Counted from the stretch's first letter, positions 5,540-59,738 are shown. The stretch is DNA of 64,000 bases from Candidatus Doudnabacteria bacterium (GCA_963837465.1 CAWINB010000001.1:501646-565645), one strand, 5' to 3'. The notes: generated from the letters alone by a model not told the origin. Translations and numbers: made by a program.

Positions 5540-6892
5540 ATGTCAAAACTTAATAATGTGACAGATAAAATCGCGGTGGAATACGTGGCGCTTAGTTCAT
5601 TGCGCTCACCTGAGATTAACCCTCGTCAGTGGACAAAAGAAGCAACTGCCCAGTTGGAAGAAAGTATAACTTCGTTTGGCGTGATTGATCCATTGTTAGT
5701 AAATAGCGCCCCAAAGCGCAAAGGTGTCATTATTGGCGGCAATTTCCGGGCTAAAGTTGCAAAAAAGCTTGGCATTAAAGAAGTGCCGGTAGTGTGGATT
5801 AATATTCCTGATTTGAAAAGGGAAACCGAGCTTTTGCTGAGAATGAATCGTAACGTCGGGGACTGGTCCTACTCCCTGTTGGCGGAGTTTGACCCGGATC
5901 TTCTTAAAAGTGTCGGTTTTTCTAGTGTGGAGATGGATAATATTTTTGCTATAGACGATACCCCGGAACAGTTCGACCTTCAGAAGGAATTGGCCAAGCT
6001 CGATATAAAAAAGGTTACTATTAAAAAGGGCGAGATTTATGAAATCGCCGGGTGCCGGTGCATGTGCGGCGATTCAACTGTGGAGAGCGACGTGTTAAAA
6101 CTTTACGGCAAGGAGCGTGCCGATTTAATTTTAACGGACCCTCCTTACCGACTTTCCTATCTAAAAGCCGGTAAGCGCGGAGGTAAACCAGTTGAAGGCT
6201 TTGGAGCTAAAAAGAACCGCAAATATTTGGAAACCGACGAATTACCCGCCGATTTTACCGAACGCTGGATGTCTAATATGGCAAAAGTAGTCAAAAAGGA
6301 TTTCCAGATTATTTGCTATGAAAACTGGAAGAACATTCGGGAAATTTGGAACTGTATGGAGCAGCAGGGATGGAAAGTCAAAAATATGCTGGTCTGGCAT
6401 GTGCCTACAAGGAATCAGGGTTTTGCGGGCAAGCATAAGTTCTTTTCCAAGCACGATATCGCAATTGTAGGGGCTGCTGATAAGTTAAAATTCAACTTTG
6501 AGAAAGAGGCGGGCGAACTGCAAAATGATTATGAGACGGCGTTGTATGCTATTTCGGGAAAACCGTTTTGGGAATCTTACCAGAAAGGTAAGAAATACTG
6601 CCCAACCGATTTCCTGGAATTCAACGCCGCGGATAAAAAATCATCAGGGCAGGCCATCATATTCGGAGTTAAACCGGTGGAAATTTTACTTCCTTATGCC
6701 AAAGTGTTATCCCAAAGAGGCGACATTATTGCCGAACCTTTCGGCGGTAGCGGTTCTACGGCCGCAACCGCCATTCGGCTACACCGCCGCTGTTTTTTGA
6801 TGGAAAAATCCCCAGTGTACCTTTCAGTCATATTGAACCGGCTAGAAAGATTAAGCGGGCAGAAAGCGCAGAGGGTCTATGCAGAAAAGTAA
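5540..6892 (+). CDS. ParB-like nuclease domain fused to a DNA N6/N4 methyltransferase
   Basis: N-terminal ParB motif (IIGGNFRAKVAKKLG), DPPY catalytic motif (LILTDPPYRL) and C-terminal EPFGGSGSTAATA SAM motif. Confidence 0.85.
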   Translation: MSKLNNVTDKIAVEYVALSSLRSPEINPRQWTKEATAQLEESITSFGVIDPLLVNSAPKRKGVIIGGNFRAKVAKKLGIKEVPVVWINIPDLKRETELLLRMNRNVGDWSYSLLAEFDPDLLKSVGFSSVEMDNIFAIDDTPEQFDLQKELAKLDIKKVTIKKGEIYEIAGCRCMCGDSTVESDVLKLYGKERADLILTDPPYRLSYLKAGKRGGKPVEGFGAKKNRKYLETDELPADFTERWMSNMAKVVKKDFQIICYENWKNIREIWNCMEQQGWKVKNMLVWHVPTRNQGFAGKHKFFSKHDIAIVGAADKLKFNFEKEAGELQNDYETALYAISGKPFWESYQKGKKYCPTDFLEFNAADKKSSGQAIIFGVKPVEILLPYAKVLSQRGDIIAEPFGGSGSTAATAIRLHRRCFLMEKSPVYLSVILNRLERLSGQKAQRVYAEK

Positions 6893-7328
6893 AAGGCAGG
6901 AAACAATCATCAAACGCCAGGCCAGGGAAAAATCCGCACTGTTGGAAAAATTTCGGCGCATGCCTATCTTACAGATTGCTTTGGATCAGACCAGAGTCAG
7001 CCGAAGCACCTATTATAGGTGGCTCGATGAAGACGAGCAGTTTAAAACTAATGCCGCAGAATCGATCGCTGAAGGCGAGCAGTTTATAACCGAGCTCAGT
7101 GAATCAAAATTATTGTCGCTAATAAACAAGGAACATTTTCCGGCCATACATTTGTGGCTCCGCTCACATCATTCTAAATATGCCAACAAGCTGGAACTGT
7201 CGGGAAGCATCAAACAACCTCGGGACGAAATGAATGAGGAAGAGTTCGGCATGTTCGCTCAGGCTCATAGTTTGTCCGGCTTTTCGCTGCCGCCGGATTT
7301 TGAAATAAAAAATAAAAAATTAAATTAA
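6879..7328 (+). CDS. terminase small-subunit-like HTH protein
   Basis: The HTH signature TRVSRSTYYRWL is typical of phage TerS-type proteins. It sits between the ParB-MTase and TerL-like genes. Confidence 0.55.
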   Translation: MQKSKRQETIIKRQAREKSALLEKFRRMPILQIALDQTRVSRSTYYRWLDEDEQFKTNAAESIAEGEQFITELSESKLLSLINKEHFPAIHLWLRSHHSKYANKLELSGSIKQPRDEMNEEEFGMFAQAHSLSGFSLPPDFEIKNKKLN

Positions 7329-7340
7329 GTCTGTAACCAT

Positions 7341-9413
7341 ATGATGCTAGAAAACTCTGGCTTCGTCATGGAAGCCATCAGGAGTAACCGACTGATAAGA
7401 CGTAAATTCGCCAAACACAGCCATCCGTTGTTTTTCTTAATTTACCTGTCCCGGTATATTAAGAAACCAACAGCCGCTTTTCAGCGGGAAATATTCTCCA
7501 TAACCTCCAATAAAAAACTGGACTTTATTGTCATCACGGCCTTTCGCGGCTCCGCCAAGTCCACGATCTGTACCACATCTCTGCCCATTTACTCCATAAT
7601 CAGCGGCAAGGCGCACAACATAGTCATCGCCAGCCAAACCCAGCTCCAAGCCCGCTCCCACTTGGCCGACATTAAAGCCGAGTTGGAAAGCAACGAACTT
7701 TTGGCCAACGACCTTGGACCATTTAAGGAAACGTCGGATCAATGGGGTGCTTACGCTTTGACCTTCAAAGATTATGACGCCCGCATTATGTGCGTGTCCA
7801 CGGAAACCGCTGTGCGCGGCATTAAGTTTAAAGAGTACCGTCCGGATTTAATAATCCTGGACGACATTGAGGATATTAATTCCACCCGAACCAAAGAAGC
7901 AAGGGACAAAATTCACGCCTGGTTTACCGGCGAGATTATTCCGCTGGGCGACCCCGCTACTAAAATTATCGTGCTTGGAAATTTCCTTCACGAGTACTCT
8001 TTAGTCGGCAGATTGAGGTCGGAAATTCAAAGCGGAAAACGCTCCGGTGTATTTAAGTGCTATCCGCTTGTGGACGACGACGGTAATTGTTTGTGGCCGG
8101 GCATGTATCCAACGCCCGAAGCTGTGGAAACCCAAAGGCGCAAGATAAATGACGAGCCTACGTGGCAGCGAGAATACTGCCTTAAAATCATGGAAAGCGA
8201 TGCTAGGCTGATTACGTTAGAACAAATGCACTTCTATGACAAGGTGCCGCCTAAGGATCAATACCACGGATATCTCTACACCTGGATTGGCACTGACTTT
8301 GCCGTCGGGCAAAACGACTGGAACGACTTTACCGCCGTGGTTACTTTTCAGGTTCACCATTTTAGGGGCAAGCTTCAAATTTATGTCTTACCGGATATTA
8401 TCAACAAGCGTTTGGATTTTGACCAGGCTATCGCGGCCATGCAGCAAATTTTAGATACCGTGGGCGAGCCGGAAAAAACCAAAATGATATTGGAAACTAA
8501 TGGTATTCAACTAGCCTACTACCAGCATATGCTTGGTAAGGGCTACCACCAAGTAGTACCAGTAAAAAGCAGTAACGACAAACTATTCAGAATCCAGCCG
8601 GTTATTAATTTGATTAAAACCGGAGAAATTTTATTGCCGAGAACCGGAGCGCAGGAGTTAATTTATCAGCTGCTGGATTTTCACAATACCATCCACGAAG
8701 ATCTTTGTGACGCTACCTCAATTGCCATAGGCCGGATTATAGAGGACATCACGACCAACAATCGCGGCCAGCGGCCACAGAGCTATTATTACGGCGGCAA
8801 AGACGGCCCGTATGTCAGCGAAGATCGGATAGCTCGGCTTAAAGCGGGTAAATTGGAATTTCCAATCCATAAGGAAGAAGACTGGGTAAAGCTGCGACCT
8901 TGGCAGACGCACCACTTAAACAGCATTCCGGAATATCAAAAAATTTCCAAGTGTAGCATCAACTATGCCCACATGCAGGAAAGTTTCTGTAGCCTGAAGC
9001 AAAAGATATATGACCGCTGGTATTATTACGATAACCTGGAAATGTATAGTGTAGGAGATCATACAGTCGGGCTTGAAGACGTGGAAGCCCCGCGCCTTTA
9101 TATTCTCATGGATCTGAAGTATTTTCCCAAATACTTGCCCTCGCTTATGGATTTATTCGGCCAGCCTTTTGAGCAGGATGAAGGAATGGTGACCTGGAAC
9201 GTTCAGCAGTTTTACCCATCAGAACATGTCATAGAGCTTTATCTGGTAGGTAAAGATTGTAAAGAGGCTCTAACTATAGCGCGCTTCTATAGTGAGCTGG
9301 GTAGACGACATTATTTTAACGTCTCACAAACTGATGGGTCGCTTCGCGATTACGTAAAAAGAAAGTTTGAGTTTATGAATAAAACATTGGCCGCTCGGCC
9401 GCTGTCATTCTAG
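7341..9413 (+). CDS. phage terminase large-subunit-like ATPase-nuclease, with a C-terminal extension domain
   Basis: Deviant Walker A (AFRGSAKST), Walker B (LIILDDIED) and an RNaseH-like nuclease region (WIGTDFAVGQNDWNDFTAVV). The C-terminal ~180 aa is homologous to the separate ORF at 59771-60307. Confidence 0.7.
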   Translation: MMLENSGFVMEAIRSNRLIRRKFAKHSHPLFFLIYLSRYIKKPTAAFQREIFSITSNKKLDFIVITAFRGSAKSTICTTSLPIYSIISGKAHNIVIASQTQLQARSHLADIKAELESNELLANDLGPFKETSDQWGAYALTFKDYDARIMCVSTETAVRGIKFKEYRPDLIILDDIEDINSTRTKEARDKIHAWFTGEIIPLGDPATKIIVLGNFLHEYSLVGRLRSEIQSGKRSGVFKCYPLVDDDGNCLWPGMYPTPEAVETQRRKINDEPTWQREYCLKIMESDARLITLEQMHFYDKVPPKDQYHGYLYTWIGTDFAVGQNDWNDFTAVVTFQVHHFRGKLQIYVLPDIINKRLDFDQAIAAMQQILDTVGEPEKTKMILETNGIQLAYYQHMLGKGYHQVVPVKSSNDKLFRIQPVINLIKTGEILLPRTGAQELIYQLLDFHNTIHEDLCDATSIAIGRIIEDITTNNRGQRPQSYYYGGKDGPYVSEDRIARLKAGKLEFPIHKEEDWVKLRPWQTHHLNSIPEYQKISKCSINYAHMQESFCSLKQKIYDRWYYYDNLEMYSVGDHTVGLEDVEAPRLYILMDLKYFPKYLPSLMDLFGQPFEQDEGMVTWNVQQFYPSEHVIELYLVGKDCKEALTIARFYSELGRRHYFNVSQTDGSLRDYVKRKFEFMNKTLAARPLSF

Positions 9414-9557
9414 GCTTGCCAAAACTGGACTTCCTATGGCCTTTGCGGTACCGTGTGCCTTGGAAAAGACGAATAAAAAATTAAGCGATCCGAAGGCTCT
9501 TTGTAGCCCGGCCAGCTAATAATGGAGTTTGAAATAACGAGAAAATTGTAATATACT

Positions 9558-9752
9558 GACTTTAACAATTTAATCAATCTAAGTAGCCTAAACCCGGCAG
9601 CAATGCCGGGCATGGCGAACAGTGAAATAAACTCTATGAAAATACTGAACCCGTCGTTCAGCTACTTTTCATAGAGTCGTATACCCGAAAGGGGCTACGG
9701 ACCCGCAAGGGTCATGCTGGCGGCGGGCTTTGTGCTATCTGCCAGCAAGAAA
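9558..9752 (+). ncRNA. conserved structured RNA leader, copy A, upstream of a PH-domain gene
   Basis: Elements in order: a GNRA-capped hairpin CCCGGCA-GCAA-TGCCGGG; CATGGCG; a covarying outer stem around the conserved ACTGAACCCGTCGTTCAGC hairpin; ATACCCGAAAGGG; a GCAA-capped hairpin; then ATGCTGGCGGCGGGCTTTGTG. The same architecture recurs at 41558 and 60488 with compensatory changes. Confidence 0.5.
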
Positions 9753-9767
9753 GGATAAATATACAAT

Positions 9768-10226
9768 ATGGAACCAATGGAATTAAAAGGCCAAAATGGC
9801 ACGCTCGTTATCACTGACGCGGGTGTAACCATTAAAAAAGGTCTCAAAGGATTTTTCTTAGGAGGCGGTAAGATGGGAGACAAAACTATCCCCTACTCCT
9901 CCATCGCCGCGGTGCAATTTAAAAAGGCTGGGGCGATAGCTGGCTATATACACTTAAGTTTAGTTGGGGGTATAGACTCAAGCACCAACGTGCTGATGAT
10001 GGCTAACGATGAGAACACCGTAACTTTCCAGATATGGGGCGGTAAGAATAAGAAATTTGAGGAAGGTAAAAATATCATCGAGCAAAAGATGATGGCAGCC
10101 AAATCCGGCGGCGCCCACCACAAATCAGAAGCCGATGACCTAGAAAAGTTTGCCCAGTTGAGGGATAAAGGAGTTATTACCGAGGATGAATTTCAACAGA
10201 AGAAAAAACAGCTGCTTGGTTTATAG
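9768..10226 (+). CDS. bacterial PH-like domain protein with C-terminal SHOCT domain
   Basis: The GTLVITDAGVTIKK...YIHLSLVGG region is typical of bPH/YokE-like proteins. The C-terminal LEKFAQLRDKGVITEDEFQQKKKQLLGL is a SHOCT signature. A GAAAGGA RBS is present. Confidence 0.6.
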   Translation: MEPMELKGQNGTLVITDAGVTIKKGLKGFFLGGGKMGDKTIPYSSIAAVQFKKAGAIAGYIHLSLVGGIDSSTNVLMMANDENTVTFQIWGGKNKKFEEGKNIIEQKMMAAKSGGAHHKSEADDLEKFAQLRDKGVITEDEFQQKKKQLLGL

Positions 10227-10292
10227 CCATTAATAACTTTTAATTGGAAGGACTCGGCCTTAGGGCCGTGTTCTTCAGTTCCAAAAACCCTT

Positions 10293-11138
10293 ATGTCCAC
10301 AAAAGGCCTTACCATACTGCTGCCGGACGGCGACCCCAACGGCATTAAAATCATTGAAGTCAACGGCTGGGTTGGCAAGGCCATTATTATCCCGAGGGCT
10401 AAGCTTAAGTTCATTAAAGACCGGCCGGAAAGCAATTTGCCAGCCTTGTATTTTTTGTTCGGCGAGAATATGGACGAGACCAAGCCCAGTGTTTACATTG
10501 GGGAAACTGAACTCTGTTACCAGCGGTTAACCAACCATGAAAGTAATAAGGATTTCTGGAACTTAGCCATTATTTTTATTGGCAGTTTGGATAAGGCCGA
10601 TGTCAGATACTTAGAAAATAAAGCCGTGCAGGAAGCCCACAGCTCTGGCCGCTATCTTATGACCAACGGTAACTCCCGTAACGAGAATACCTTATCGGAG
10701 TTTAAAAAATCAGCAGCTGATAGCTATTTTGAAAGTATTAAGTTTGTAATGGCGGTACTCGGTTATACACTGTTTGAACCCATAATTACCGACACCCACC
10801 ACGCTGAAGAAATCTATTACTTAAAAGCCTCTGGCGCGGAAGCCAAAGGCAGTCTTTTGGATACAGGAGAGTTTATTGTTTTTAAGGGCTCTACCGTGCG
10901 CCTGGCTGAAGTGCCGTCCATGCAGGGCACGGGTGGCTCTAAGCTTCGGCAGCTGATGAGCCGTGAGGATGACGGTAGGCTAAAGAAGATTAACGACGAG
11001 GCCTATCAACTGACCCAAGACGTGGTTTTTACCAGCCCAAGCCTGGCTGCAGATGTTATAACCGGCAGATCCAGCAACGGCTGGATTTCGTGGAAGGATA
11101 GTCAGGGCCGGACTCTGGATGAGAATAAAAGGAAATAA
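10293..11138 (+). CDS. GIY-YIG-like nuclease N-domain with DUF4357-like C-terminal domain
   Basis: LYFLFGEN...VYIGETE...RLTNH matches the GIY-(x13)-YIG-R pattern. The C-terminal NGWISWKDSQGRTLDE is a conserved tail. The protein is nearly identical to the 61201-62046 product. Confidence 0.55.
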   Translation: MSTKGLTILLPDGDPNGIKIIEVNGWVGKAIIIPRAKLKFIKDRPESNLPALYFLFGENMDETKPSVYIGETELCYQRLTNHESNKDFWNLAIIFIGSLDKADVRYLENKAVQEAHSSGRYLMTNGNSRNENTLSEFKKSAADSYFESIKFVMAVLGYTLFEPIITDTHHAEEIYYLKASGAEAKGSLLDTGEFIVFKGSTVRLAEVPSMQGTGGSKLRQLMSREDDGRLKKINDEAYQLTQDVVFTSPSLAADVITGRSSNGWISWKDSQGRTLDENKRK

Positions 11139-11147: not shown

Positions 11148-11855
11148 CTAATTCCAAATTTTTAAACCCCATCCACTAACTTTTCCTGTTAAACTCTTTG
11201 CAAATAAAGGCCAATAAATTTTTAAGTATGCATTTTTTTCAGCTAGCTTTTCTACATCAAGATCTTTATTGCTTACACCGATCCAAATAGCACTATTTAA
11301 AGACGTTGCCACTAAGTCAGTTGCCTGTAAAAGTGAATTGGTATCGTCATTAGAAAAAATAAGCCAAGAGCAAAGCCTATTTTTATATGGATCCTTCTTA
11401 TCAGATGTAACCCAGCTTTGACTGTCATTTTGAATGTGTTTAAAAAACTTTTTTGTCAGGTTAGCCTCAGTCTTATGGTCAAGATTGTCCATAACTACCA
11501 AACCTGTTTCGTCATTTTTTTTCAAAGATAAAAAAAATCGTTCAATCAAAAAATCTAAAGCGCCGAGATAAGTATCGCTAATTTTTCTTTCCGATTTCAT
11601 ACTATACTCACCAAGGTAAACAGCGCGGGCTTCAACTTTATATTTTTTTAATACTGAAAATATTTCTTCGGTAATTTTTAATTTTTGAGTTTGATTTAAT
11701 TTATTCTTGCGCGCTGATTTTAAAGTACTTATAGTATGCCTTTCTCCAATTTTTTCCAATTCGGTTGCCGCTTTTATTAAATCGTTGGCGTCAAAAATCA
11801 ATCCGCACAATACAAAATAAGCACGGCCTCGTTGGCCATCTTTGCAAATATCCAT
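11148..11855 (-). CDS. hypothetical protein
   Basis: The start is placed at MDICKDGQRGRAYFVL. The longer track ORF runs antisense through the MTase fragment. Low GC with no recognisable motif, and it replaces the 5' half of the copy-2 MTase. Confidence 0.4.
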   Translation of the reverse strand: MDICKDGQRGRAYFVLCGLIFDANDLIKAATELEKIGERHTISTLKSARKNKLNQTQKLKITEEIFSVLKKYKVEARAVYLGEYSMKSERKISDTYLGALDFLIERFFLSLKKNDETGLVVMDNLDHKTEANLTKKFFKHIQNDSQSWVTSDKKDPYKNRLCSWLIFSNDDTNSLLQATDLVATSLNSAIWIGVSNKDLDVEKLAEKNAYLKIYWPLFAKSLTGKVSGWGLKIWN

Positions 11856-12470
11856 AAAGCGGCCAAGGATGACTTTTCCATTATTGTATACGAAAACTGG
11901 AAAAACATCCGGACAATTTGGGGCGAGATGGAAAAATACTGGAAGGTAAAAAATATGATTGTTTGGCACTTGCCCAACCGTGTGCAAGGATTTTCCGCTA
12001 AATATAAATTCTTTAACAAGCACGACATTGCCATGGTCGGCAGCGGCGACAGCGACAAAGAATACAATTTGGAGTCTGAAGAAGACGGATTGCAGAACGA
12101 ATACGACACAGCTCTTTACGGCATTTCCGGCAAACCGCAGTGGGAATCGTACGCCAAAGGTAAAAAATATTGCCCGACGGACTTTATTGAGTATGTGGCC
12201 AGTGACGAAAAAAGTTCGGGCCAGGGCGTAATTTTTGGTACCAAACCAATTGAGATTCTCATTCCCTACATTAAGGTATTAACCAAACGCGGCGATTTAA
12301 TTTTGGAACCGTTTGGCGGCAGTGGCAGTACTTTGATTGCCGCAACCAAAATGAAGCGCCGCTGCTGCATTATGGAAAAGTCGTCGGTTTATGCTGAAGT
12401 AATTATTAAGCGCTGGGAAAAGCTCACGGGCCAAAAAGCCCAGCGGATAATAGCAGGAAGGGAAACCTAA
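11832..12470 (+). pseudogene. 5'-truncated ParB-MTase (C-terminal methyltransferase half only)
   Basis: It aligns to residues ~235-450 of the 5540 and 56445 products (IVYENWKNIRTIWGEME...EPFGGSGSTLIAAT) but lacks the ParB domain and the DPPY motif. Confidence 0.6.
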
Positions 12471-12474
12471 AACT

Positions 12475-13017
12475 ATGGATGAACCCAATGACATTGTTAT
12501 GCTTCCCAACCCGGAAGGTAGTGGTAACTATTCCAGCTCCGCTGACATGAAGCAGGATAAGCAAAAAGAGTTGATGGTCGAGCAGCTCAAGAAAACGCCA
12601 ATCGTGCAGGTGGCATGCGAAAAATTAGGAATTGGCCGGAGTTCCTACTACAGGTGGCGGCAAGAGGATAAAAAATTTGAGAAAGATTGTGACGACGCGA
12701 TTAAAGAAGGTCGAAACTTGGTAAATGACGTTGCCGTATCGCAGCTGTTAAGCGCCATAAGAACCGGCAATATGACGGCAATAATGTTTTGGTTAAAACA
12801 TTTTGACGAAAACTTTAAAACCAAAATTGAAATTTCGGGATCAGTCAAGCAGGTACGTGAGGAGCTTACCGAAGAAGAGATGGCTCTTTTTCTTGAGTCC
12901 TTAAAACTTGCCGGCTTTTCCGAAAAGCAAATTAATATTAATTCTAATAAGGAGACAAACGACAATGATCAACCTAGAGAAACTTCCGTTCCTGATCGAC
13001 CCGATCAGGAAAAGTAG
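12475..13017 (+). CDS. terminase small-subunit-like HTH protein (copy 2)
   Basis: GRSSYYRWRQEDKKF HTH signature. Paralogous to the 6879 and 57785 products. Confidence 0.55.
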   Translation: MDEPNDIVMLPNPEGSGNYSSSADMKQDKQKELMVEQLKKTPIVQVACEKLGIGRSSYYRWRQEDKKFEKDCDDAIKEGRNLVNDVAVSQLLSAIRTGNMTAIMFWLKHFDENFKTKIEISGSVKQVREELTEEEMALFLESLKLAGFSEKQININSNKETNDNDQPRETSVPDRPDQEK

Positions 13018-15284: not shown

Positions 15285-15343
15285 TTTTATTCTTCCTTTC
15301 TTGCGCTGGTTGCGCTCCTAGGGTGAAAGGGATTGGAGATAAA

Positions 15344-18267: not shown

Positions 18268-18432
18268 AGGGGAAACTCACATATTATTTTTTACATAATA
18301 CACGAGTTAAACCAAATATTCAGTTGTCAAAGATCAATCTTGAGTGTTTCAACCCAAGCGCCAGGCGGCTCCTGTTAGGGCAACAGGGCTTTGTTCCCCC
18401 GGTGTCCACCTGGCGTTTAAGTTGAATAAGTC

Positions 18433-18478
18433 GGTCGGGAGAATAAAAGATTGTGCAAATCTTTTATTCTCCCACTCC
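18433..18478. other. perfect 16-bp inverted repeat within the intergenic region of the operon
   Basis: GGGAGAATAAAAGATT-gtgcaa-ATCTTTTATTCTCCC. No U-tract follows on either strand. Confidence 0.5.
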
Positions 18479-46460: not shown

Positions 46461-46495
46461 GGTATTTATATGTTAACAGCATTAACCAATTCTTT

Positions 46496-51172: not shown

Positions 51173-51411
51173 TCTTTGTATTTTAATGTTTTCTTTTTTT
51201 ATTTTTGTTTTTATCCTCGAAAATTTTTTATTTTAACCTTTCGGCTAATGAAACCACTCTGCAAAGAGATTGGTTCGCCGACTCTCAATCCATAAACGGA
51301 TTGAACAAGACAGTAAACAACGACGTTCCTTGTGAGAATACCGGTCAGGGATAGCTCCGCGGAGTGTCCCGCGCGTTATGGATGGATCAAGGAATACGGG
51401 GCGGGTGGGCC

Positions 51412-51533
51412 CTTCTGGTGCCGCTAATGCCAACTGGAATCCGGACAATTCGCGCGTCAATTTCAACTGGAACGATCCGGCGAATGTCAATCCGAAGTTG
51501 GGCACCCGTCCCGCGGTCGTTGTGGGCATAGGG
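51412..51533 (+). repeat. DGR template repeat (TR)
   Basis: Non-coding copy with AAC-rich codon positions (ANANWNPDNSRVNFNWNDPANVNPK if translated). Confidence 0.8.
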
Positions 51534-51534
51534 G

Positions 51535-51903
51535 TTATCTGTTACCCGGCTGGTTGCGGATGTATTTGATCCAACCGCTGAGCATTTTGCTTATCTCCTC
51601 CAAATTGGCCATCAGCTGGTAAAATTGGGTGTTGACGATAATGTTGTTTTCACAACACAGCCGTACCAGCAATTTGCATAACTCGCATTTGGAATAAGCT
51701 TTCAGCAGGCCGCTTTCCCGGAGCGGCAGGGGCATGGCATTGGCCTCAAAAATATATTCCAGTATGGCTAAAAGGGAACGATCCAGCACCTGGCCCAAAG
51801 TATAACGCAACGGTTTGGGAAAGTCGGCCAGCAGGGGCAAAAGGATTTGATAGGTTTTATAAGTTTTAACCACCACCGGCGGTTCAAAGGAAGTTTGGGT
51901 CAT
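51535..51903 (-). CDS. avd: Avd-like four-helix-bundle accessory protein (IVS/Avd family)
   Basis: FPKPLRYTLGQVLDRSLLAILEYIFEAN matches the Avd/IVS pattern FPKxExYxLxxQxxR...NIxEG. On the opposite strand to the TR and RT. Confidence 0.7.
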   Translation of the reverse strand: MTQTSFEPPVVVKTYKTYQILLPLLADFPKPLRYTLGQVLDRSLLAILEYIFEANAMPLPLRESGLLKAYSKCELCKLLVRLCCENNIIVNTQFYQLMANLEEISKMLSGWIKYIRNQPGNR

Positions 51904-52902
51904 ATGGACTTATTGCCTTTTAATAAATTTGCAAAAGTTGAAAATCTTTATGATGCTTGGGATCGCTTCACGCCCGGCAAACGGGAGCGCCCGGATGTGG
52001 TGGCCTTTGAGCGCCGCTTGGAAAACCAACTGCAACAGCTTTCGGAGGATTTAAGCGGCGGGCTTTATGTGCACGGGGACTATAAAAGTTTTTTTGTGCG
52101 CGACCCGAAGTTCAGGATTATACACAAAGCCAAAGTCAGAGACCGGGTTGTGCATCAGGCGCTTTACAGCGTACTCTACCGGCTGTTTGACCGGCGGTTC
52201 TATTTTGATTCGTATTCGTCCAGGGTTGGCAAAGGTACCCAGGCGGCGGTGCTCCGAGTCTGGGAATTTATTCGAAAGGAAAGCAGTAATTTTAACCAGC
52301 AGGCTTATGTTTTGCATGGCGATGTTGATGATTTTTTTGCCAGCGTTGACCACCAGATTTTATTAACGTTTATCCGCAAACGCCTTAAAGAGCCAAATTA
52401 TTTGCGGCTTTGCACGACCATAATTGACAGTTTCCATGTCACCCCGGGCAAAGGAGTGCCGCTGGGCAATTTGACCTCGCAGATTTTCGCCAATATTTAT
52501 CTGCACGAATTGGATTACTTTGTGAAGCAGACTTTGGGCGTGGAAAAGTATGTCAGGTACAACGACGACTTTTATTTAGTCAGCAAAGATAAATCCGAAC
52601 TTTCCGGCTTGAGCCTGACCATCAGGCGGTTTTTAGCTGAAAAGTTAACGCTGTCTTTGCCGGAGGAAAAAACAATACTCAGAAGCCTAAACAACGGCGT
52701 GGATATTTTGGGGGTGGTGGCTTTTCCTTACGGGCTGGTGCCAAGAAAAAGAGTCAGGACGGCGGTTTTGGAAGTGGCTGCGCAAGCCCGAAAAACAGGA
52801 TATAATAGCTATGTGGTCAAACAGCTGAATTCATATATTGGTTTGCTGGGAATTTCCAAGAGTTTTTTACTGAAAGAACGCTTGCGTTTAAGCATCGGTT
52901 AA
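51904..52902 (+). CDS. DGR-type reverse transcriptase
   Basis: LGNLTSQIFANIYL (the DGR-specific SQ motif), catalytic YVRYNDDFYL, and motif A LHGDVDDFF. Confidence 0.85.
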   Translation: MDLLPFNKFAKVENLYDAWDRFTPGKRERPDVVAFERRLENQLQQLSEDLSGGLYVHGDYKSFFVRDPKFRIIHKAKVRDRVVHQALYSVLYRLFDRRFYFDSYSSRVGKGTQAAVLRVWEFIRKESSNFNQQAYVLHGDVDDFFASVDHQILLTFIRKRLKEPNYLRLCTTIIDSFHVTPGKGVPLGNLTSQIFANIYLHELDYFVKQTLGVEKYVRYNDDFYLVSKDKSELSGLSLTIRRFLAEKLTLSLPEEKTILRSLNNGVDILGVVAFPYGLVPRKRVRTAVLEVAAQARKTGYNSYVVKQLNSYIGLLGISKSFLLKERLRLSIG

Positions 52903-52914
52903 TTATTTTAGTTT

Positions 52915-55491
52915 ATGGGTCCAGAAACAAGAAATTTTGAGCAGCCGGAGGCAGGAAATTTTGACGCTAAAGCCGCTTTGCAGAAAGCGCGAGGCCGACT
53001 TATCGGGCAGGCTTTAAAATCGCGCGAAGGTATTGCCGGTCTTAAGGCTTGGCGGTCTTTATCTAACAGAAGCAAAGGGGTACGGCAGGCCAGAACTGTG
53101 TTTGAAAACCTTTCGGCTTACGACTTAGCCGTTTCCGGCAACCCCGAGCAAGCCGGGGCGTTTGGCGCGGAGATGGCCAACAAAACAAGTTTGGGAAGCG
53201 GCAGAGTACAGGAACTCCTGTCCTGCTTTGAAGCCAAGCAATTGGGAGCGACATTGCCGGAAGTCCGGCCTGAAGTCCGGCAAATTTTCCAGAATGTTTT
53301 AAAGAGCAGGTCCACGGAGGGCGAGGTTGACGTCGCCCAAGTCATGTCTTCGGCCAACGTGTCTTTAGGCGGCAAGTTCCAGTGGTTTGAATCCCGCTTG
53401 GCTTCGGCCATAGATTTTTTGGAGCGCAAGGATTTGGAAGAGGCCAGAGCCGAAGCTGAAAAGCCAATACCTCCGGAAATCCAAGAACAGAAAGAGCAGA
53501 GCCCACAAAGCAATCTGCCTCCGCCTCAGGAAGACAGCCTGACGCCCAGTATGGACGAGATGGAAACCTCAAAGGAAAACGAGCCCGGAGCATATTTTAA
53601 AGTGCGGCCTTTTTACGGCGGCTATTATCGCGGCGATGATTTTGACATATGGGACGAGAAGGTCATGAAGTGGAAAAAGTCGGCAAGTATGCTCTCTGAA
53701 TTTACCAGCCCTGCCATAGAAGAGAAAAGTCGTAAGGTCTTTTCCGGCAGCGTCCAAGGCGGCAGACGCACGGTATTGCCCATGCCTTATGGTTTTGCGC
53801 CGGATGTTTCCAGTCTGCGGACCCAGGGCAACGAGACTGTAACCATATTGGCTGACGGACACGGCAGTTTTGTTGTTGACGCTGCCAGAGCTTCGGGAGT
53901 GATTACCTTTTCTCTGGAAATAGCAAAAACCCAAGAAAGTTTAAGGGAAGCAGCGCGGGCAAAATCCAAAGCCGCGACTTATAAATTTTCTCCCGGTACT
54001 GATGCTAAACTTGCAGAGATAACTCAAGGCAAACATTCCATTATGGATCAGGCGCGCTCTGCTAAGGCTTATGTTAAGAAGCTCTTAAAATATTCCAATG
54101 ATTCAAGCTTTAACAACATATACAGAACTGGCGATCCGGCAGGTTATTTTTCAAGAATTGAACAGCACGAAGAGGCTGACTGCGATGTGGCCAACACTTA
54201 TTTCGTGGCTTTGCTGCGGCGTCTTGGAATGGAGGCAAGATTAGTTTCCGGCCATTACGTCAAAGTTAAGGATAAGCAGAATGCGGCGGTTATTTCTTCG
54301 GGTACCGGCCACGCTTGGGCGGAAGTTTGGGATGGGCGGGCTTGGCAGCGCCTTGATGCCACGCCGCCGGGCGATCCTAATATGGACGATGAGGAAATAG
54401 ACGAGCAAAGCTCTGACGCGGCTATGGAAGGCGACTTTGGCGAACAGGAGGCTCCGGAGTTAAGCGATGAGGAATTGGAGCAATTAATCACTGAAGCCCA
54501 AGAAGCTTTGGAAAAGAAGGAACGGGAACCGGAAGAATTAGCGGCTTTAAACTTTGCCGAACAAGCGGGTTGCAGCCCTGAAGAAGCCAAGCAGATACTA
54601 AAACGTATTACTGAAGCGCGAGAGAAGAGGGACAAACAGGGAAGGAATATCAGGGCAAGATTATTGGCTGAATGGCAAAAAATAATCCAGGATAATTTGA
54701 TTGACAGAACCCGCTACACCGCGCCTATACGAATGTCCAGAGGGGAAGAATTGGTTGACCCGGTGGAAACGGTATTGGACTTGCGCGCCGGTGAAGCTGA
54801 TCCGACCGGTTTTTCCAAGCATGAACGTAAGACTGAAAAGGAACAGATTTACGGCGGCTTTGACGCTTTTCTGGTAGTGGACAAAAGCGGCTCTATGGCA
54901 GAAACTGACGGCTCAAGCGGCAGGCCAAAGTGGGAAGACCAGCAGGTCTTTAGCTTTTTGCTGATGGATTCAATGTACGCCGCCGCGCAGGAATTTAAGC
55001 GGCAGAAAATAAAGCTGATTTCGCCGATGGATGTCAGGGTGGCTTTAGTCAGTTTTAACGCCGGGGGCGGCAGGGTTGAATTGCCGCTGGGCACCGCTTG
55101 GGGGCCTAAGGAACAACTGCAAGTTTGGAAAGCATTGCAGGAGAATGTGGGCGGAGGCACCCCGGATCATTTGGGCTTACAAACCGTTAAGAAGATGATT
55201 GAGCAAGATGCCGTTAACTTGCAACAAAGTAAACAGCGGCTTCGTTTGGTATTGGTATCCGCCGATGGCGGCAGCGACAGCGTACCCGCCACTATCTCGG
55301 CCAAGGAAGACTTAAAGTCAGCGGGCGTGGTGGTGAAAGCCGCGGGTATCGGTTCCGGTGCCAGCCAGGTAATTGCCACTTATACGCCGGACGGCAGCAA
55401 TTTGGCCAGCTTTGCCGATGCTCCGGATTGGGCGGCCGAAGAAATCATTACTCAGGCCAAACTTTTAAATCCGAAAAAAGTTAAAAGGTAA
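52915..55491 (+). CDS. vWA-domain protein with transglutaminase-like cysteine protease region
   Basis: Transglutaminase-like triad elements (EADCDVANTYF, GHAWAEVWD) and a C-terminal vWA MIDAS motif (FLVVDKSGSMAETDG). Confidence 0.75.
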   Translation: MGPETRNFEQPEAGNFDAKAALQKARGRLIGQALKSREGIAGLKAWRSLSNRSKGVRQARTVFENLSAYDLAVSGNPEQAGAFGAEMANKTSLGSGRVQELLSCFEAKQLGATLPEVRPEVRQIFQNVLKSRSTEGEVDVAQVMSSANVSLGGKFQWFESRLASAIDFLERKDLEEARAEAEKPIPPEIQEQKEQSPQSNLPPPQEDSLTPSMDEMETSKENEPGAYFKVRPFYGGYYRGDDFDIWDEKVMKWKKSASMLSEFTSPAIEEKSRKVFSGSVQGGRRTVLPMPYGFAPDVSSLRTQGNETVTILADGHGSFVVDAARASGVITFSLEIAKTQESLREAARAKSKAATYKFSPGTDAKLAEITQGKHSIMDQARSAKAYVKKLLKYSNDSSFNNIYRTGDPAGYFSRIEQHEEADCDVANTYFVALLRRLGMEARLVSGHYVKVKDKQNAAVISSGTGHAWAEVWDGRAWQRLDATPPGDPNMDDEEIDEQSSDAAMEGDFGEQEAPELSDEELEQLITEAQEALEKKEREPEELAALNFAEQAGCSPEEAKQILKRITEAREKRDKQGRNIRARLLAEWQKIIQDNLIDRTRYTAPIRMSRGEELVDPVETVLDLRAGEADPTGFSKHERKTEKEQIYGGFDAFLVVDKSGSMAETDGSSGRPKWEDQQVFSFLLMDSMYAAAQEFKRQKIKLISPMDVRVALVSFNAGGGRVELPLGTAWGPKEQLQVWKALQENVGGGTPDHLGLQTVKKMIEQDAVNLQQSKQRLRLVLVSADGGSDSVPATISAKEDLKSAGVVVKAAGIGSGASQVIATYTPDGSNLASFADAPDWAAEEIITQAKLLNPKKVKR

Positions 55492-55624: not shown

Positions 55625-55733
55625 TGTCGCTGAGGTTTTGCCGGTAGGTGGAGATACAAAAAGGGTCCCCCACCTACCGGCGGCAACCTTTCGGATGCCG
55701 TCCACCTGTCCTTGCGAACAGGCACCTCAGCGA
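55625..55733. other. nested-helix structured element in an intergenic region
   Basis: Outer pairing GTCGCTGAGGT ... ACCTCAGCGAC encloses GCCGGTAGGTGG ... CCACCTACCGGC (11 bp). GTCGCTGAGG occurs a third time at 55761. Confidence 0.35.
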
Positions 55734-56444
55734 CGAGTGGCGGTTGGGAGACCGTCTTTATGTCGCTGAGGATGAAGCCATATCCGAAATTAGATTTCGG
55801 GGTTAGGCGATGGTGAAATGTGCTTATATTATATATAAATTTTGCGGGTTAGGCAACGAGATTGGTTGTATTAAAAATTACCAGAATTGGTAGTGCTTCC
55901 GTTGGACGACTGTGCCAGTGTTACGGACTTAAGTAGTATTTTAACATTCAATAGTGATACCTAAGCGGCGCCAAAAAAATTTAGCAATTATTGACTGTGG
56001 AATTTAAACTCTGGCTATGCCCACGATTCCTTAAATGCCCTGTAGGTCTTAGTGTTCAACCTTATTGCCCTAATCCTGTGAATTGCCAGTTTGAGGTATC
56101 ATCTGGCCTAAGGCAACGGGCTTACTTCAGGTATCATGTGGGATGGCACAAGTCTTAAGTTTGACAGTCAAATTAAAAAGAGTTACTATATTTATATACA
56201 GCCATCGTGAACTAGAAAGTGTATGGTTTAGGTTTTCCAAAAGAGTCCCGGAGTCGAAACCTCTTCGGGAAAATTCGGCCATATTGCTCTAAAACGGAAA
56301 ATAATAAAAAATAAAATATCCAATTAATATTTAAAGTTTGATGGATTAATAAAACTTAATAAGACCATCCAATCAGAATGGACGGCAGTTTTTTGCTATG
56401 CGGAAAACTAAAACAATCAAGTATCAAAATTAAAGTTATAACCC

Positions 56445-57788
56445 ATGAAAGAAAAATTATTAAGCGAGCTTAAGTTGAAAGTTGAGTATGTGTCAGTGGC
56501 TGCGCTGAAACCCAGCGAGTATAATCCACGCAAATTCTCCAAAGAGCAGTTTGAGCAGCTAAAAACTAGCATTAAAGAGCACTCCTTGGTAGAGCCTTTG
56601 GTGGCGAACTCCGCGCCGAATAGAAAGAACATTTTAATAGGAGGACACGGTAGGTTAAAAGCCGCCAAGGAATTGGGGCTTAAAACCGTGCCGGTGGTTT
56701 ACGTCAGCATTCCCGATATCGAGACCGAGAAGGATCTAAACGTGAGACTGAATAAGGCGGTCGGAGAATTTGATCTGGAGTTGCTGTTAAAGAATTTCAG
56801 CGAGGAATTTTTGTCCGGAGTTGGATTTTCCAGTGAGGAATTGGATAAAATTTTTGCTGTTGAGGAGATACCGGAATTATTTGATCTGGAAAAAGAACTT
56901 AAGAAACTCAATATTCAAAAGGTCAGCGTTAAACAAGGTGACGTCTACGAGATTGCCGGTTGTCGGGTTATGAACGGTAACAGTACCGTTGAAGCCGATA
57001 TGATAAAACTCATGGACGGCCAGAGGGCGGATATGTGTTTGACGGACCCACCTTATTTACTAGACTACCTACACGGCAAAAAGAAAAAAGACGCTACTAA
57101 AGGTTTTGGCCTTAAGCGTGATCGTACCTATCTAGGGACTACGGAACTGCCGGAAAATTTTACCGACCTGTGGATGGCTAGTATCGCCAAAATCCAAAAG
57201 CCGGATTTCTCTATTATAGTTTATGAGAATCCAAAGAACCTGCGAACCATCTGGAACGCTTTAGAAAAGTATTGGAAATACCGTAACACTATAATTTGGC
57301 ATCTGCCAAATCGGGTACAGGGCTTCTCCGCTAAGTATAAGTTTTTCAACAAATGGGACTTCGCCATGGTCGGTACCTCCGGTCAGGTGTCCTTAAACGA
57401 CGAGCCGGAAAAGGATGCGCTATTGCAAGAGGAGTATGAGTCCGCTTTATTTGCCACCTCCGGCAAGCCGCATTGGGAGTCTTATGCCAAGGGCAAAAAG
57501 TATTGCCCGACTGACTTTATTGAGTATAAAGCGTCGGATAAAAAATCATCGGGCCAAGGAATAATCTTTGGCACTAAGCCAGTGGAGATTCTGATTCCAT
57601 ATATTAAGGTGCTGACTAGGCGTGATGAATTGATAGTGGAACCGTTCGGGGGGTCGGGGTCAACAGCGGTAGCAGCCATAAAAATGAAGCGCCGTTGTTA
57701 CCTGATGGAAAAATCTAACGTCTACACGGAAGTCATATTGAACAGACTTTCGAAGTTAACCGGGCAAAAGCCAAGGAGGGTGGCATGA
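56445..57788 (+). CDS. ParB-like nuclease domain fused to DNA methyltransferase (copy 3)
   Basis: ParB motif ILIGGHGRLKAAKELG, catalytic CLTDPPYLLDYL, and EPFGGSGSTAVAA. Confidence 0.85.
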   Translation: MKEKLLSELKLKVEYVSVAALKPSEYNPRKFSKEQFEQLKTSIKEHSLVEPLVANSAPNRKNILIGGHGRLKAAKELGLKTVPVVYVSIPDIETEKDLNVRLNKAVGEFDLELLLKNFSEEFLSGVGFSSEELDKIFAVEEIPELFDLEKELKKLNIQKVSVKQGDVYEIAGCRVMNGNSTVEADMIKLMDGQRADMCLTDPPYLLDYLHGKKKKDATKGFGLKRDRTYLGTTELPENFTDLWMASIAKIQKPDFSIIVYENPKNLRTIWNALEKYWKYRNTIIWHLPNRVQGFSAKYKFFNKWDFAMVGTSGQVSLNDEPEKDALLQEEYESALFATSGKPHWESYAKGKKYCPTDFIEYKASDKKSSGQGIIFGTKPVEILIPYIKVLTRRDELIVEPFGGSGSTAVAAIKMKRRCYLMEKSNVYTEVILNRLSKLTGQKPRRVA

Positions 57789-58225
57789 GCCGGAAAAATT
57801 ACCAACAGGCAAAACAAAAAGCGGCCGTTATCGAACAGCTAAAAAAATTTCCGATTGTTCAGTTAGCCGTTCAGAAGGCCGGAGTATCCAGACCCAGTTA
57901 TTACCAATGGCGGAAACAGGATGCGGAATTCGCTAAAACCGCGGATGAGGCCATGGCCGAAGGCATCCTGTTTATTAACGACATCGCCGAAGGTAATATG
58001 ATATCTCTGATAAACGAAAAGGACATGCGAAGCATTCGTTTTTGGCTCACGCACCGTCATCCCGTCTATGCCGCAAAACTGCAGCTCGAAGGGAAGTTGG
58101 AGTTATCGGACGAGGCTTTAAGTAGCGAGCAGCAGGAAATCGTAGACAGGGCCTTGGGATTGCTCGCCGGGGATAAAAGCCAACTCGGCGAACAAAAAGG
58201 AGGCAACCATGAACCTCACGCCTGA
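57785..58225 (+). CDS. terminase small-subunit-like HTH protein (copy 3)
   Basis: GVSRPSYYQWRKQDAEF HTH signature. Confidence 0.55.
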   Translation: MSRKNYQQAKQKAAVIEQLKKFPIVQLAVQKAGVSRPSYYQWRKQDAEFAKTADEAMAEGILFINDIAEGNMISLINEKDMRSIRFWLTHRHPVYAAKLQLEGKLELSDEALSSEQQEIVDRALGLLAGDKSQLGEQKGGNHEPHA

Positions 58226-59738
58226 CATCACTGAGCGGATGGGTAAAGATGCCGGTATCCGCCGCGCCATAACAAAAAAGAGCCATGAAGCTTTCTTTGC
58301 CTTCTATCTGCCGCATTACTTAGAGTACCAAAGCGCATTGTTCCATCACGAGCTGTTTGCCGCTACCGAAGACAGGACTGCTAAACTTTTGGTCGTCCAA
58401 GGTTTTAGGAACAGCGGCAAATCAACAATATTATCTTTGTCTTTTCCCCTTTGGCTCGCCATAAGCGGGCAGGCGCAGGAAATCATCATCATTTGCAAAA
58501 ACCAGATGTTGGCCAGACATGCGATGAAAAATATTCAGGCAGAATTAGAAGAGAATGAACAGCTAACCAAGGATTTTTATCCCTTTGATTTTAGGGAGGA
58601 TGCCTCGGACGCTTACATCGTAAGCTTAAAACGCTACCGCGCCGAAATCGTGGCCGTTTCCCGCGAGCAAAGCGTGCGCGGCTTAAAACATCGGCAGTAT
58701 AGGCCACAGGCTATTATTATTGACGATCCGGATGACATCGGGTCGGTAAAAACTTTGGAAAGCCGGGAGAATACCTGGCAATGGATGATGCGGGATATTG
58801 TGCCATTGGGGGATAAAAATACCAGAATTGTGGTTATCGGTTCGCCGCTTCATGGCGATTCGCTGATTATGCGCCTACACGATAAGATCGAAAGCGGACA
58901 GATGCGGGGACTGTCCATGCGCATTCCCATTCTTGACCAAAACGGCAAACCCGCTTGGCCTGCCAAATTTCCGACTCAGAAGGAAATCCAAGAGGAGAAA
59001 ATGAAGATGGATGAGATCAGTTGGAACAGGGAAATGATGCTGTTGCTTACTCCTGAGCTCGGACAGCTGGTCACCTTAGAGGACATAGTTAAGTATAATA
59101 ACCTACCTCCCCGTGCGAGTACTTGCGGCTATATTGCCACCTGGTCGGGAGTGGACTTCGCCATCGGCCAGAAGCCGGGCAGCGATTATACGGCTATCGT
59201 GACAATACAAATACATGTCGTTAATGGAAAGCTGAAAATTTACGTCCTGCCGAACCCCGTTAACCGCCACTTGGATAATTATGGCAATATCGCCGCCATG
59301 AAGCAGGTAATCGACAATGCCAAACAAACAGGCCACAGCAAAATGTTTATGGAGGCCAACTTATTTCAAGTTTCGTTTTACCAGCAGATGATCGGCGCTG
59401 GCTATAACCAGATAGCGCCAGTTACGGTCAGTGGTGATAAGCTAACAAGGTTACAACCGACAGCTATGATGATCAAGGATGGTCGGCTACTATTTCCCAA
59501 AGAGGGCTGCCGTGACCTCATTTTCCAACTGGTAGATTTTGGCTCGGCACGCAAAGACGATTTGGCGGATGCCTTGAGCTTGGTCGTCAATGAAGCTATT
59601 AACGAACATAATAAAAATCTCTCGCTGTACGGTTACTTGGATTGGGTAGAATCTAACGGCGGACCGTATATGGACATTGACGGCAGCAAACCGACCAGGA
59701 GATTTCAAAGCCTCATCCCGGAAGGCCAAGAAGAATGA
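58209..59738 (+). CDS. terminase large-subunit-like protein (copy 3, canonical Walker A)
   Basis: GFRNSGKST (GxxxxGKST), Walker B IIIDDPDD, and nuclease-region similarity to copies 1 and 2. Confidence 0.7.
   Translation: MNLTPDITERMGKDAGIRRAITKKSHEAFFAFYLPHYLEYQSALFHHELFAATEDRTAKLLVVQGFRNSGKSTILSLSFPLWLAISGQAQEIIIICKNQMLARHAMKNIQAELEENEQLTKDFYPFDFREDASDAYIVSLKRYRAEIVAVSREQSVRGLKHRQYRPQAIIIDDPDDIGSVKTLESRENTWQWMMRDIVPLGDKNTRIVVIGSPLHGDSLIMRLHDKIESGQMRGLSMRIPILDQNGKPAWPAKFPTQKEIQEEKMKMDEISWNREMMLLLTPELGQLVTLEDIVKYNNLPPRASTCGYIATWSGVDFAIGQKPGSDYTAIVTIQIHVVNGKLKIYVLPNPVNRHLDNYGNIAAMKQVIDNAKQTGHSKMFMEANLFQVSFYQQMIGAGYNQIAPVTVSGDKLTRLQPTAMMIKDGRLLFPKEGCRDLIFQLVDFGSARKDDLADALSLVVNEAINEHNKNLSLYGYLDWVESNGGPYMDIDGSKPTRRFQSLIPEGQEE

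Follow-up and report, generated by a model that had tools for sequence, protein, structure and literature searches.

Among the phage satellites described so far, only the phage-inducible chromosomal islands that form capsids (cfPICIs) encode both the small and the large terminase subunits, TerS and TerL (PMC10085698). Classical phage-inducible chromosomal islands (PICIs), virion-encapsidated integrative mobile elements (VEIMEs), and minimalist satellites have TerS at most (PMC10085698, PMC9618062). Here we examine a stretch of 64,000 nucleotides from a Candidatus Doudnabacteria bacterium (GCA_963837465.1, CAWINB010000001.1:501646-565645), called the window below, which contains three modules, each composed of a gene for a ParB_N domain fused to a DNA methyltransferase (ParB-MTase), a TerS-like gene, and a TerL gene. 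On our analysis, the modules are the packaging cores of compact mobile elements of the integrative type, and these elements form a family of Patescibacteria that is apparently undescribed and widespread in the phylum. No published description was found in the Patescibacteria and Saccharibacteria literature, including the TM7 pangenome paper; this coverage was incomplete, and a prior description is possible.

The closest described systems each share part of this design. Like the element, cfPICIs are integrative satellites with a repressor and an integrase. However, cfPICIs encode a major capsid protein, a protease, and a portal together with the head-tail adaptor and connector, and tails are all that they steal. 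The element, which occurs in Patescibacteria, has none of these genes; its recombinase is a large serine recombinase, and it always has a ParB-MTase. Classical PICIs, including the Staphylococcus aureus pathogenicity islands (SaPIs), and the minimalist satellites, namely, phage-inducible chromosomal minimalist islands (PICMIs) and VEIMEs, are likewise integrative islands of small size. Their genes include a master repressor, an integrase, a packaging-redirecting TerS, and defence cargo but no structural genes (PMC10085698, PMC9618062). These islands use the TerL of their helper and usually have a primase-replicase, in contrast to the element, which encodes TerL and has no recognised replication gene in its backbone. 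The staphylococcal cassette chromosome (SCC) offers a different likeness, namely, cargo islands that are moved by large serine recombinases (Ccr) and accrete in tandem at one locus. The best NCBIfam matches of the recombinases in the window were CcrB, CcrA, and XisF, far below the equivalog cutoffs (107 versus 900 bits); unlike the element, SCC has no terminase, ParB-MTase, or cleavable repressor switch. The late operon of temperate tailed phages, finally, starts with the same genes in the same order (ParB-like MTase, TerS, and a TerL of the T7/phrog_38 type), but in phages the portal, protease/scaffold, and capsid genes follow TerL, where the element has cargo and a recombinase. Phage late operons commonly begin with a ParB-MTase gene.

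Three terminase modules in the window

The window was annotated with Pfam, PHROGs, Rfam, PADLOC, and NCBIfam profiles. An earlier note on this DNA, made from the sequence alone, had placed three ParB-MTase/TerS-like/TerL modules of common gene order at 5540-9413, 11832-14443, and 56445-59738, and we found open reading frames (ORFs) at exactly these positions (Table 1). The same note had reported that no portal or capsid gene follows the modules; by Pfam there is no portal, capsid, or tail gene in the whole window. Its range of 40 to 75% protein identity between copies holds for the MTases (56 to 71%) and the TerLs (40 to 58%) but not for the TerS-like proteins, which are only 36% identical between modules. 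The ParB-MTases of modules 1 and 3 share 56% identity, the MTase of module 2 is 64 to 71% identical to the other two, and TerL identity is 58% between modules 1 and 2 and 40% between either of these and module 3. The note was right about the module but had not seen the repressor, the large serine recombinase, the tandem accretion, or the Patescibacteria context that we describe below.

The MTase motifs TDPPY and FGGSGST and the GGxxR box of ParB are kept in modules 1 and 3. As the note had proposed, the MTase of module 2 is truncated at its 5' end: the profile match begins only at position 36 and covers the C-terminal part. Since this truncated protein lacks the whole ParB half and the DPPY motif, it is probably inactive; no remnant of ParB was found upstream of the fragment.

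All three TerLs matched the phrog_38 large terminase (E values of 1e-65 to 1e-81) and Terminase_6C, and the match in the Protein Data Bank (PDB) was to a TerL of the T7 type (1e-7). In an alignment of 20 TerL sequences, the acidic residues of the nuclease (D316, E382, and D451/D454) were invariant, as were Walker A (GKST) and Walker B (DD), and all three window proteins keep them. By these motifs the window TerLs are large terminases with a predicted N-terminal ASCE ATPase and a predicted C-terminal RNaseH-like nuclease. The true start of the module 2 TerL is probably the ATG near 12965. The TerS-like proteins (146 to 180 amino acids [aa]) contain a helix-turn-helix (HTH) and matched small-terminase families of PHROGs (E values of 1e-6 to 1e-8), with PF13022 above its cutoff only for the protein of module 2. 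An AlphaFold2 model of the module 3 protein showed an HTH and a long helix. The top Foldseek matches of this model were the TerS proteins of phBC6A51, NV1, and Sf6, none of them significant, and a TerS profile had no match among PDB sequences. No core protein reached an NCBIfam curated cutoff.

The TerL of module 1 (690 aa) carries at its C terminus an extra domain of ∼170 aa (window positions 8780-9413), which is homologous to the free convergent gene that follows module 3. The same domain is fused to TerL in a database protein (P0012), and a homologue is also present in L009 (L numbers denote the related loci analysed below). That the domain is fused to TerL in both proteins hints at a functional link between the two.

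A conserved element architecture across Patescibacteria

Among 50,697 deposited phage records, the TerL of module 3 had no relative above 27% identity. Its homologues in a large protein collection, 36 to 50% identical, were mostly from Patescibacteria and often lay on contigs of hundreds of kilobases. A scan of one genome per species placed the TerL family in at least 398 loci, with a best match of 50% identity among the matches listed; the TerS family comprised at least 1,946 clusters at 90% identity. In Candidatus Microsyncoccus and three metagenomic contigs the order of genes was the same: defence cargo (restriction-modification [RM] or other), a ParB-MTase (sometimes with a second MTase), a small ORF, and TerL. 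Behind TerL came a gene of the bPH_2 or GIY-YIG/DUF4357 type, then a large serine recombinase and host genes, and there were no structural genes.

We then called and clustered ORFs in 82 genome loci, taking 10 kb to either side of each relative. Present were ParB-MTase in 78 of the 82 loci, TerL in 80, the TerS-like gene in 75, a large serine recombinase in 61, a divergent gene of ∼215 aa in 28, and the reverse transcriptase (RT) of a diversity-generating retroelement (DGR) in 11. The product of the divergent gene consists of LexA_DNA_bind and Peptidase_S24 domains (Pfam). TerL and the recombinase were directly adjacent in 28 loci and were separated by one or two genes in 19 loci and by three to nine in 10; in 12 of the 22 loci without a downstream recombinase, the available downstream sequence was shorter than 5 kb. 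An identical layout was found on ∼60 contigs of IMG/VR whose TerLs are 31 to 42% identical, several of them with two copies.

The backbone common to ∼140 loci comprises a divergent LexA/CI-like repressor and, facing it, a small ORF, the ParB-MTase (sometimes with a second MTase), TerS, TerL, zero to nine cargo genes, and the large serine recombinase. It is ∼6 kb long, and the recombinase lies on the operon strand; variable cargo is placed at the 3' end of the repressor gene, of the TerL gene, and of the recombinase gene. The cargo of the family includes Cap15 with SMODS (CBASS), a ThsB-type TIR protein (Thoeris-like), DUF4352 and SNase-like proteins, type III RM, HEC-05, PDC-S14, DGRs, and small surface proteins whose genes are led by LOOT RNA. 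Two proposals of the earlier note are supported, namely, a part of an undescribed mobile unit and a stand-alone packaging module without structural genes, the layout of which recurs in other genomes.

Some loci depart from the common arrangement. Two divergent TerL genes stand in tandem before the recombinase in loci labelled Peribacteria or Peregrinibacteria (L015, L025, L030, L079, L091, L095, L097, L098, L101, and L140), and upstream of such TerL-TerL pairs a protein of cluster c22 takes the place of LexA and c5. A heavy-metal P-type ATPase gene, often accompanied by c34, lies one to three genes downstream of the recombinase in L021, L041, L058, L039, L045, L018, L050, and L049. This gene may mark a favoured neighbourhood for integration or may be recurrent cargo for metal resistance. 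We did not accept it as a conserved integration site, because heavy-metal ATPases can be cargo.

Absence of structural genes downstream of TerL

Among 143 ORFs of at least 150 aa downstream of TerL in 80 loci, no recurrent family of portal, capsid, or tail proteins was detected with Pfam and PHROGs. The families matched by two or more of these ORFs were RT, DUF4352, SNase, Sie-like, bPH, ABC transporters, and similar proteins. The same search had a positive control in two IMG/VR contigs (L146 and L149) with TerLs 32 to 34% identical to that of module 3; in both, TerL is followed by a portal gene (phrog_2662, 1e-98), a protease/scaffold gene, a major head protein gene (phrog_10), and an adaptor gene. 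In a neighbour-joining tree of 164 TerLs, all TerLs found in the context of a ParB-MTase, TerS, or recombinase gene formed one clade. The sister of this clade was the phage clade of L146 and L149, and more distant phage TerLs fell outside. Two of the checks that the earlier note had suggested, a search of related genomes for the module and for a following portal gene and a TerL phylogeny, were carried out: the module recurs without a recurrent portal family downstream, and element TerLs stand apart from those of true phages.

About 60 of the contigs catalogued as viral in IMG/VR (L089-L145 and L150) contain this element only and no structural genes. For this reason TerL-based viral and prophage calls in CPR (candidate phyla radiation) data are probably inflated. 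These elements, not phages, are probably behind many “viral” contigs in IMG/VR and behind TerL-based prophage calls in the genomes of CPR bacteria.

Selection on the backbone and evidence of mobility

Median dN/dS values, calculated by the Nei-Gojobori method from 12 closely related pairs, were 0.054 for the LexA-like repressor, 0.062 for c11, 0.042 for ParB-MTase, 0.038 for TerS, 0.030 for TerL, and 0.027 for the recombinase. All six backbone genes are under strong purifying selection.

Three species-representative genomes (L014, L020, and L021) share ∼87% nucleotide identity over ∼6.05 kb in otherwise unrelated flanks. The shared block runs from the stop codon of the repressor gene to the stop codon of the recombinase gene, with cargo abutting both. 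Because the similarity stops at these codons, the comparison defines the backbone and not the ends of the element. Cargo cassettes differ between near-identical backbones; the examples are a CBASS cassette, at 94% identity, and an SNase-LOOT cassette that is present in L041 and missing from L036. These results indicate that a backbone with cargo hotspots spreads horizontally.

A proposed terminase-bearing satellite and its alternatives

How would such an element be propagated? We favour a satellite-like integrative element that is inducible by the SOS response and hijacks the capsids of helper phages with a terminase holoenzyme of its own, a reading to which we give a probability of roughly 0.45. 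The earlier note had listed satellite-type hijacking among its options. In this model, DNA damage or infection by a helper phage would inactivate the repressor, the operon would be switched on, and the recombinase would excise or integrate the element. TerS would recognise a pac site in the element, and TerL would cut the DNA and pump the element into procapsids of a co-infecting or co-resident helper. The ParB-MTase would modify the DNA and so protect it in the next host. Such a satellite would bring a whole terminase holoenzyme and no shell, and it would spread defence cargo between cells.

Several observations point in this direction. A cleavable repressor that faces an operon ending in an integrase gene serves temperate phages, satellites, and integrative and conjugative elements as their standard switch, and from this arrangement induction by SOS or by a helper is predicted. 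An integrase and a master repressor of the satellite type are both present, in the form of the recombinase and the divergent LexA/S24 gene counted above and of an XRE/M78 gene pair before module 1. From a TerS-TerL pair whose ATPase and nuclease motifs are intact, one would predict that a pac site is recognised and that DNA is cut and translocated into a procapsid; the procapsid must come from a helper phage, because the element encodes none. A combination of integrase, repressor, genes that redirect packaging, and defence hotspots is also seen in known satellites such as PICIs and P4 (PMC10085698, PMC9122126).

Other observations weigh against this reading. In described satellites TerL occurs only together with capsid and portal genes (cfPICIs; PMC10085698), and a satellite TerL would face the demanding task of docking with a foreign portal. 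The length of the TerL C-terminal tail, taken as a proxy for docking, was uninformative (21 aa in the phage sisters and 19 to 117 aa in the elements). No helper phage was identified. The TerS-like proteins fit a small terminase in position and size, but their profile matches are modest and their Foldseek matches fell short of significance. The backbone had no recognisable primase, helicase, or Rep family; its small ORF c5 has no Pfam family, and c11 has only a DcpS_C match below the cutoff. A k-mer comparison detected no att sites or direct repeats at the expected junctions in the window, only chance 12-mers, and none of 52 whole-contig loci had the terminal direct repeats of a circular form. 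The TerL tree has no support values. The taxonomic labels come from metagenome-assembled genomes and are unverified; of 80 loci sampled from the at least 398, 53 were labelled CPR, 13 were unclassified, and 14 had other labels.

The earlier note had itself raised serial prophage decay, and it had named as the refuting scenario that the modules are the left ends of three ordinary prophages whose structural genes lie outside the window or were recently deleted. The typical phage order of ParB-MTase, TerS, and TerL, the truncated MTase of module 2, the lack of a recombinase proper to module 1, and the viral classification of many such contigs in IMG/VR would all fit such a history. We nevertheless rejected it in both forms and regard it as hardly credible. 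The minimal gene set is uniform across the phylum, with catalytic motifs intact and dN/dS of ∼0.03 to 0.06 for each backbone gene, which rules out random decay; the recombinase directly after TerL in 28 loci, the lack of structural genes among the 143 downstream ORFs, and the separation of element TerLs from those of true phages point the same way. Within ∼200 nucleotides (nt) after each window module there is opposite-strand cargo or a LOOT cassette and no truncated portal gene. Relaxed selection, random gene loss, and degraded motifs, which would mark remnants, were not found, the MTase of module 2 being the sole truncation. A domesticated system resembling gene transfer agents (GTAs), or a split prophage, in which head and tail genes elsewhere in the ∼0.7-Mb genome are supplied in trans by the cell, is somewhat easier to entertain, although still very unlikely. 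Dispersed GTA loci are known in Alphaproteobacteria, and our analysis covered 64 kb of the source genome and 10 kb to either side of its relatives, so distant structural loci are possible. However, a domesticated single-copy system would not be expected to have several divergent copies per genome, to spread horizontally into flanks that are unrelated, to include an integrase in its operon, or to vary in cargo. CPR genomes are also small, with prophage-like structural clusters reported to be uncommon outside oral TM7 (10.1101/2020.04.29.069278).

A role in defence deserves more weight, even if we consider it unlikely: the triad would be a terminase-derived anti-phage or interference module that sits on a serine-recombinase island and is not a transferring element. 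It could resemble RM, in which case self DNA would be marked by the MTase, TerS would bind DNA, and unmarked DNA would be attacked by TerL as an ATP-driven nuclease, or it could be a decoy that competes for the portal or the concatemers of an invading phage and blocks packaging. The methyltransferase is always paired with an ATPase-nuclease, defence genes dominate the surroundings, several divergent copies per genome are found as for other defence genes, and no circular or excised forms were seen in the 52 whole-contig loci. Packaging interference by satellites and prophages is, moreover, an established principle of defence (e.g., 10.1101/2025.02.27.640495). Against this, the triad almost always shares one operon with an integrase and stands opposite a cleavable repressor of the prophage type, a signature of inducible mobile elements and not of constitutive defence, and ParB-MTase, TerS, and TerL are the ordinary start of a phage late operon. 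TerL is also not known to translocate DNA without a portal. The more specific proposal of a repurposed terminase, in which the triad without a capsid is a methylation-gated, ATP-driven DNA cutter, a terminase-derived system of restriction or packaging interference that protects a tiny CPR genome while the recombinase merely moves the island, is less probable still; if true, the family would not be a satellite but would found a new class of defence systems. We retain the satellite-like integrative element as the best explanation, with a real chance of a more unusual system should the terminase work in the absence of a capsid.

Although Patescibacteria account for a large part of bacterial diversity, very little is known of their mobile elements and phages. 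In these reduced genomes, the family appears to act as a major carrier of defence systems and DGRs. If the satellite reading is true, it adds a new hijacking strategy, to bring the whole terminase and steal only the shell, and it implies abundant unseen helper phages of CPR bacteria.

Organization of the window

Guided by the layout of the family, we read the window as three or four elements accreted in tandem (Table 1), a multi-element island that makes up ∼9% of the roughly 0.7-Mb genome here. Several divergent copies per contig were also found elsewhere (L011/L039, L089/L118, L117/L127, L129/L130, and L144).

Table 1. Features of the 64,000-nt window, in order of position
Feature	Position	Strand	Evidence
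XRE-type HTH gene (4364-4729) and M78/ImmA-like metallopeptidase gene (4737-5258)	4364-5258	+	Pfam HTH_3 3e-9; Peptidase_M78 5e-25
Module 1 ParB_N::N6/N4 DNA methyltransferase, intact	5540-6892	+	Pfam ParB_N and N6_N4_Mtase; family hidden Markov model (HMM) 474 bits
Module 1 TerS-like HTH protein	6879-7328	+	PF13022 9e-6; phrog_24579 TerS; family HMM 146 bits
Module 1 TerL (residues 1-475) with extra C-terminal domain (residues ~518-685)	7341-9413	+	phrog_38 1e-78; motifs conserved
LOOT RNA copy 1, leader of following PH-like gene	9585-9713	+	Rfam RF03000, 63 bits
SHOCT/DUF4429 (PH-like) gene, cargo after module 1	9768-10226	+	Pfam
GIY-YIG/DUF4357 gene, PADLOC candidate PDC-S14	10293-11138	+	PF14267 1e-19; PDC-S14 2e-87
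DUF3800 cargo gene, overlapping truncated start of module 2	11148-12023	-	Pfam 4e-10
Module 2 MTase fragment	11832-12470	+	distal part of N6_N4_Mtase only
Module 2 TerS-like HTH protein	12475-13017	+	PF13022 36.1 bits versus cutoff 27.9; PHROG TerS families
Module 2 TerL, intact	12908-14443	+	phrog_38 9e-81; family HMM 673 bits; motifs intact
Module 2 cargo: VWA protein, MoxR-type AAA_3 ATPase, HamB-like DEAD helicase, unknowns, 1000-aa unknown, TrmB regulator (+ strand)	14679-28122	-	Pfam, PADLOC
Large serine recombinase, canonical family member	28211-29644	+	Resolvase, Recombinase, Zn_ribbon_recom; 673 bits to family recombinase HMM
Headless-element cargo: two small unknowns, 1224-aa unknown, 201-aa ORF, HEC-05 (GmrSD-like), type III RM res and mod, 178-aa ORF	29858-41518	-	Pfam, PADLOC
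LOOT RNA copy 2	41569-41684	+	Rfam RF03000, 60 bits
LOOT-led cargo: bPH_2 protein, Ltp-type surface lipoprotein (superinfection-exclusion type), HARE-HTH protein	41752-43797	+	Pfam
Second large serine recombinase, 593 aa, divergent	46496-48277	+	Pfam; 430 bits to family HMM
Cargo upstream of module 3: AAA_5 protein (885 aa), DGR, VWA/transglutaminase protein (52915-55491)	48515-55491	+	Pfam
DGR: variable region (VR), template repeat (TR), bAvd, RT	VR 51048-51159; TR 51412-51523; bAvd 51535-51903 (-); RT 51847-52902		bAvd and RVT_1 matches
LOOT RNA copy 4, no substantial ORF downstream	55679-55809	-	Rfam RF03000, 49.5 bits
Module 3 ParB_N::MTase, intact	56445-57788	+	Pfam ParB_N and N6_N4_Mtase; family HMM; motifs
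Module 3 TerS-like HTH protein	57785-58225	+	phrog_4044 2.5e-7; family HMM 173 bits
Module 3 TerL, intact	58209-59738	+	phrog_38 4e-65; motifs intact
178-aa ORF, homologue of module 1 TerL C-terminal domain, free convergent gene after module 3	59771-60307	-	sequence homology
LOOT RNA copy 3	60508-60628	+	Rfam RF03000, 70 bits
PH-like gene (SHOCT/DUF4429 or bPH_3 type), cargo after module 3	60629-61114	+	Pfam
GIY-YIG/DUF4357 (PDC-S14) gene after module 3	61201-62046	+	Pfam, PADLOC

The first element consists of a regulator pair, the triad, a cassette of LOOT, PH-like, and PDC-S14 genes, and the DUF3800 gene, and it has no recombinase of its own. The XRE/M78 pair lies where other genomes have the LexA/S24 repressor, and from this position and its likeness to ImmR/ImmA it would be the switch of this element. 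In the second element, the truncated MTase and the intact TerS and TerL are followed by ∼14 kb of minus-strand cargo and a recombinase. By the TerL-cargo-recombinase layout of the family, this cargo would lie inside the element, and the recombinase at 28211-29644 is its presumed integrase.

The region 29858-48277 contains cargo, a LOOT-led bPH_2/Ltp cassette, and a recombinase but no terminase module, and we read it as a headless unit with the second recombinase as its presumed right end. HEC-05 matched with an E value of 6e-135 (PADLOC). The type III mod and res genes of this unit belong to cargo clusters that lie between TerL and the recombinase in L023, L033, L042, and L093, and its 178-aa ORF is homologous to a gene in the TerL-recombinase interval of L009. 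The third element has the AAA_5 gene and the DGR before its module and a cassette after it; its recombinase may lie beyond the end of the window.

The DGR has an RT, an Avd gene, and a TR/VR pair in which 14 of 15 mismatches fall at adenines of the TR. It is of the active type, and its VR is the 3' end of the AAA_5 gene, not of the VWA/transglutaminase gene downstream of the RT.

The earlier note had also described an RNA leader, a PH-domain gene, and a GIY-YIG/DUF4357-like gene after copies 1 and 3, and matches to LOOT RNA, PH-like domains, and PF14267/PDC-S14 were found at both places. The two GIY-YIG/DUF4357 proteins are 95% identical, whereas the adjoining terminase modules are only 36 to 58% identical, which suggests recent cassette exchange or gene conversion between elements. 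At the DNA level, the cassette region at 60629-62046 has repeats of 84 to 87% identity in common with 9421-10531, and the LOOT-containing segments 9421-9739 and 60360-60654 are ∼85% identical. Apart from the paralogous genes, the LOOT cassette, and the TR/VR pair, the window contained no long repeats.

For two very large ORFs in the cargo regions, 25120-28122 (1000 aa) and 31130-34804 (1224 aa), both on the minus strand, neither Pfam nor PADLOC gave a match. On the left margin of the island (1865-3892, minus strand), a ThiF/E1-like gene with weak PADLOC E1-E2 matches stands with three small unknown ORFs, a cluster that may be a defence system of the ubiquitin-like conjugation type.

LOOT RNA as a putative leader of cargo genes

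Rfam lists LOOT as a small RNA (RF03000). The four copies in the window scored 49.5 to 70.2 bits, all above the gathering threshold of 46.4, and every plus-strand copy stands before a PH-like gene. A covariance model built from these four copies was used to scan the related loci. LOOT was detected in 27 of the 82 genome loci and in 12 IMG/VR element loci (39 in total) and in none of the true-phage loci, and in 17 of the 39 cases it directly adjoins the recombinase gene. Because LOOT usually lies 40 to 70 nt upstream of an ORF on the same strand (DUF4352, c38, SNase-like, bPH, or c23), it looks like a cis-acting 5' leader of small cargo genes of the element, which gives this orphan RNA a genomic context.

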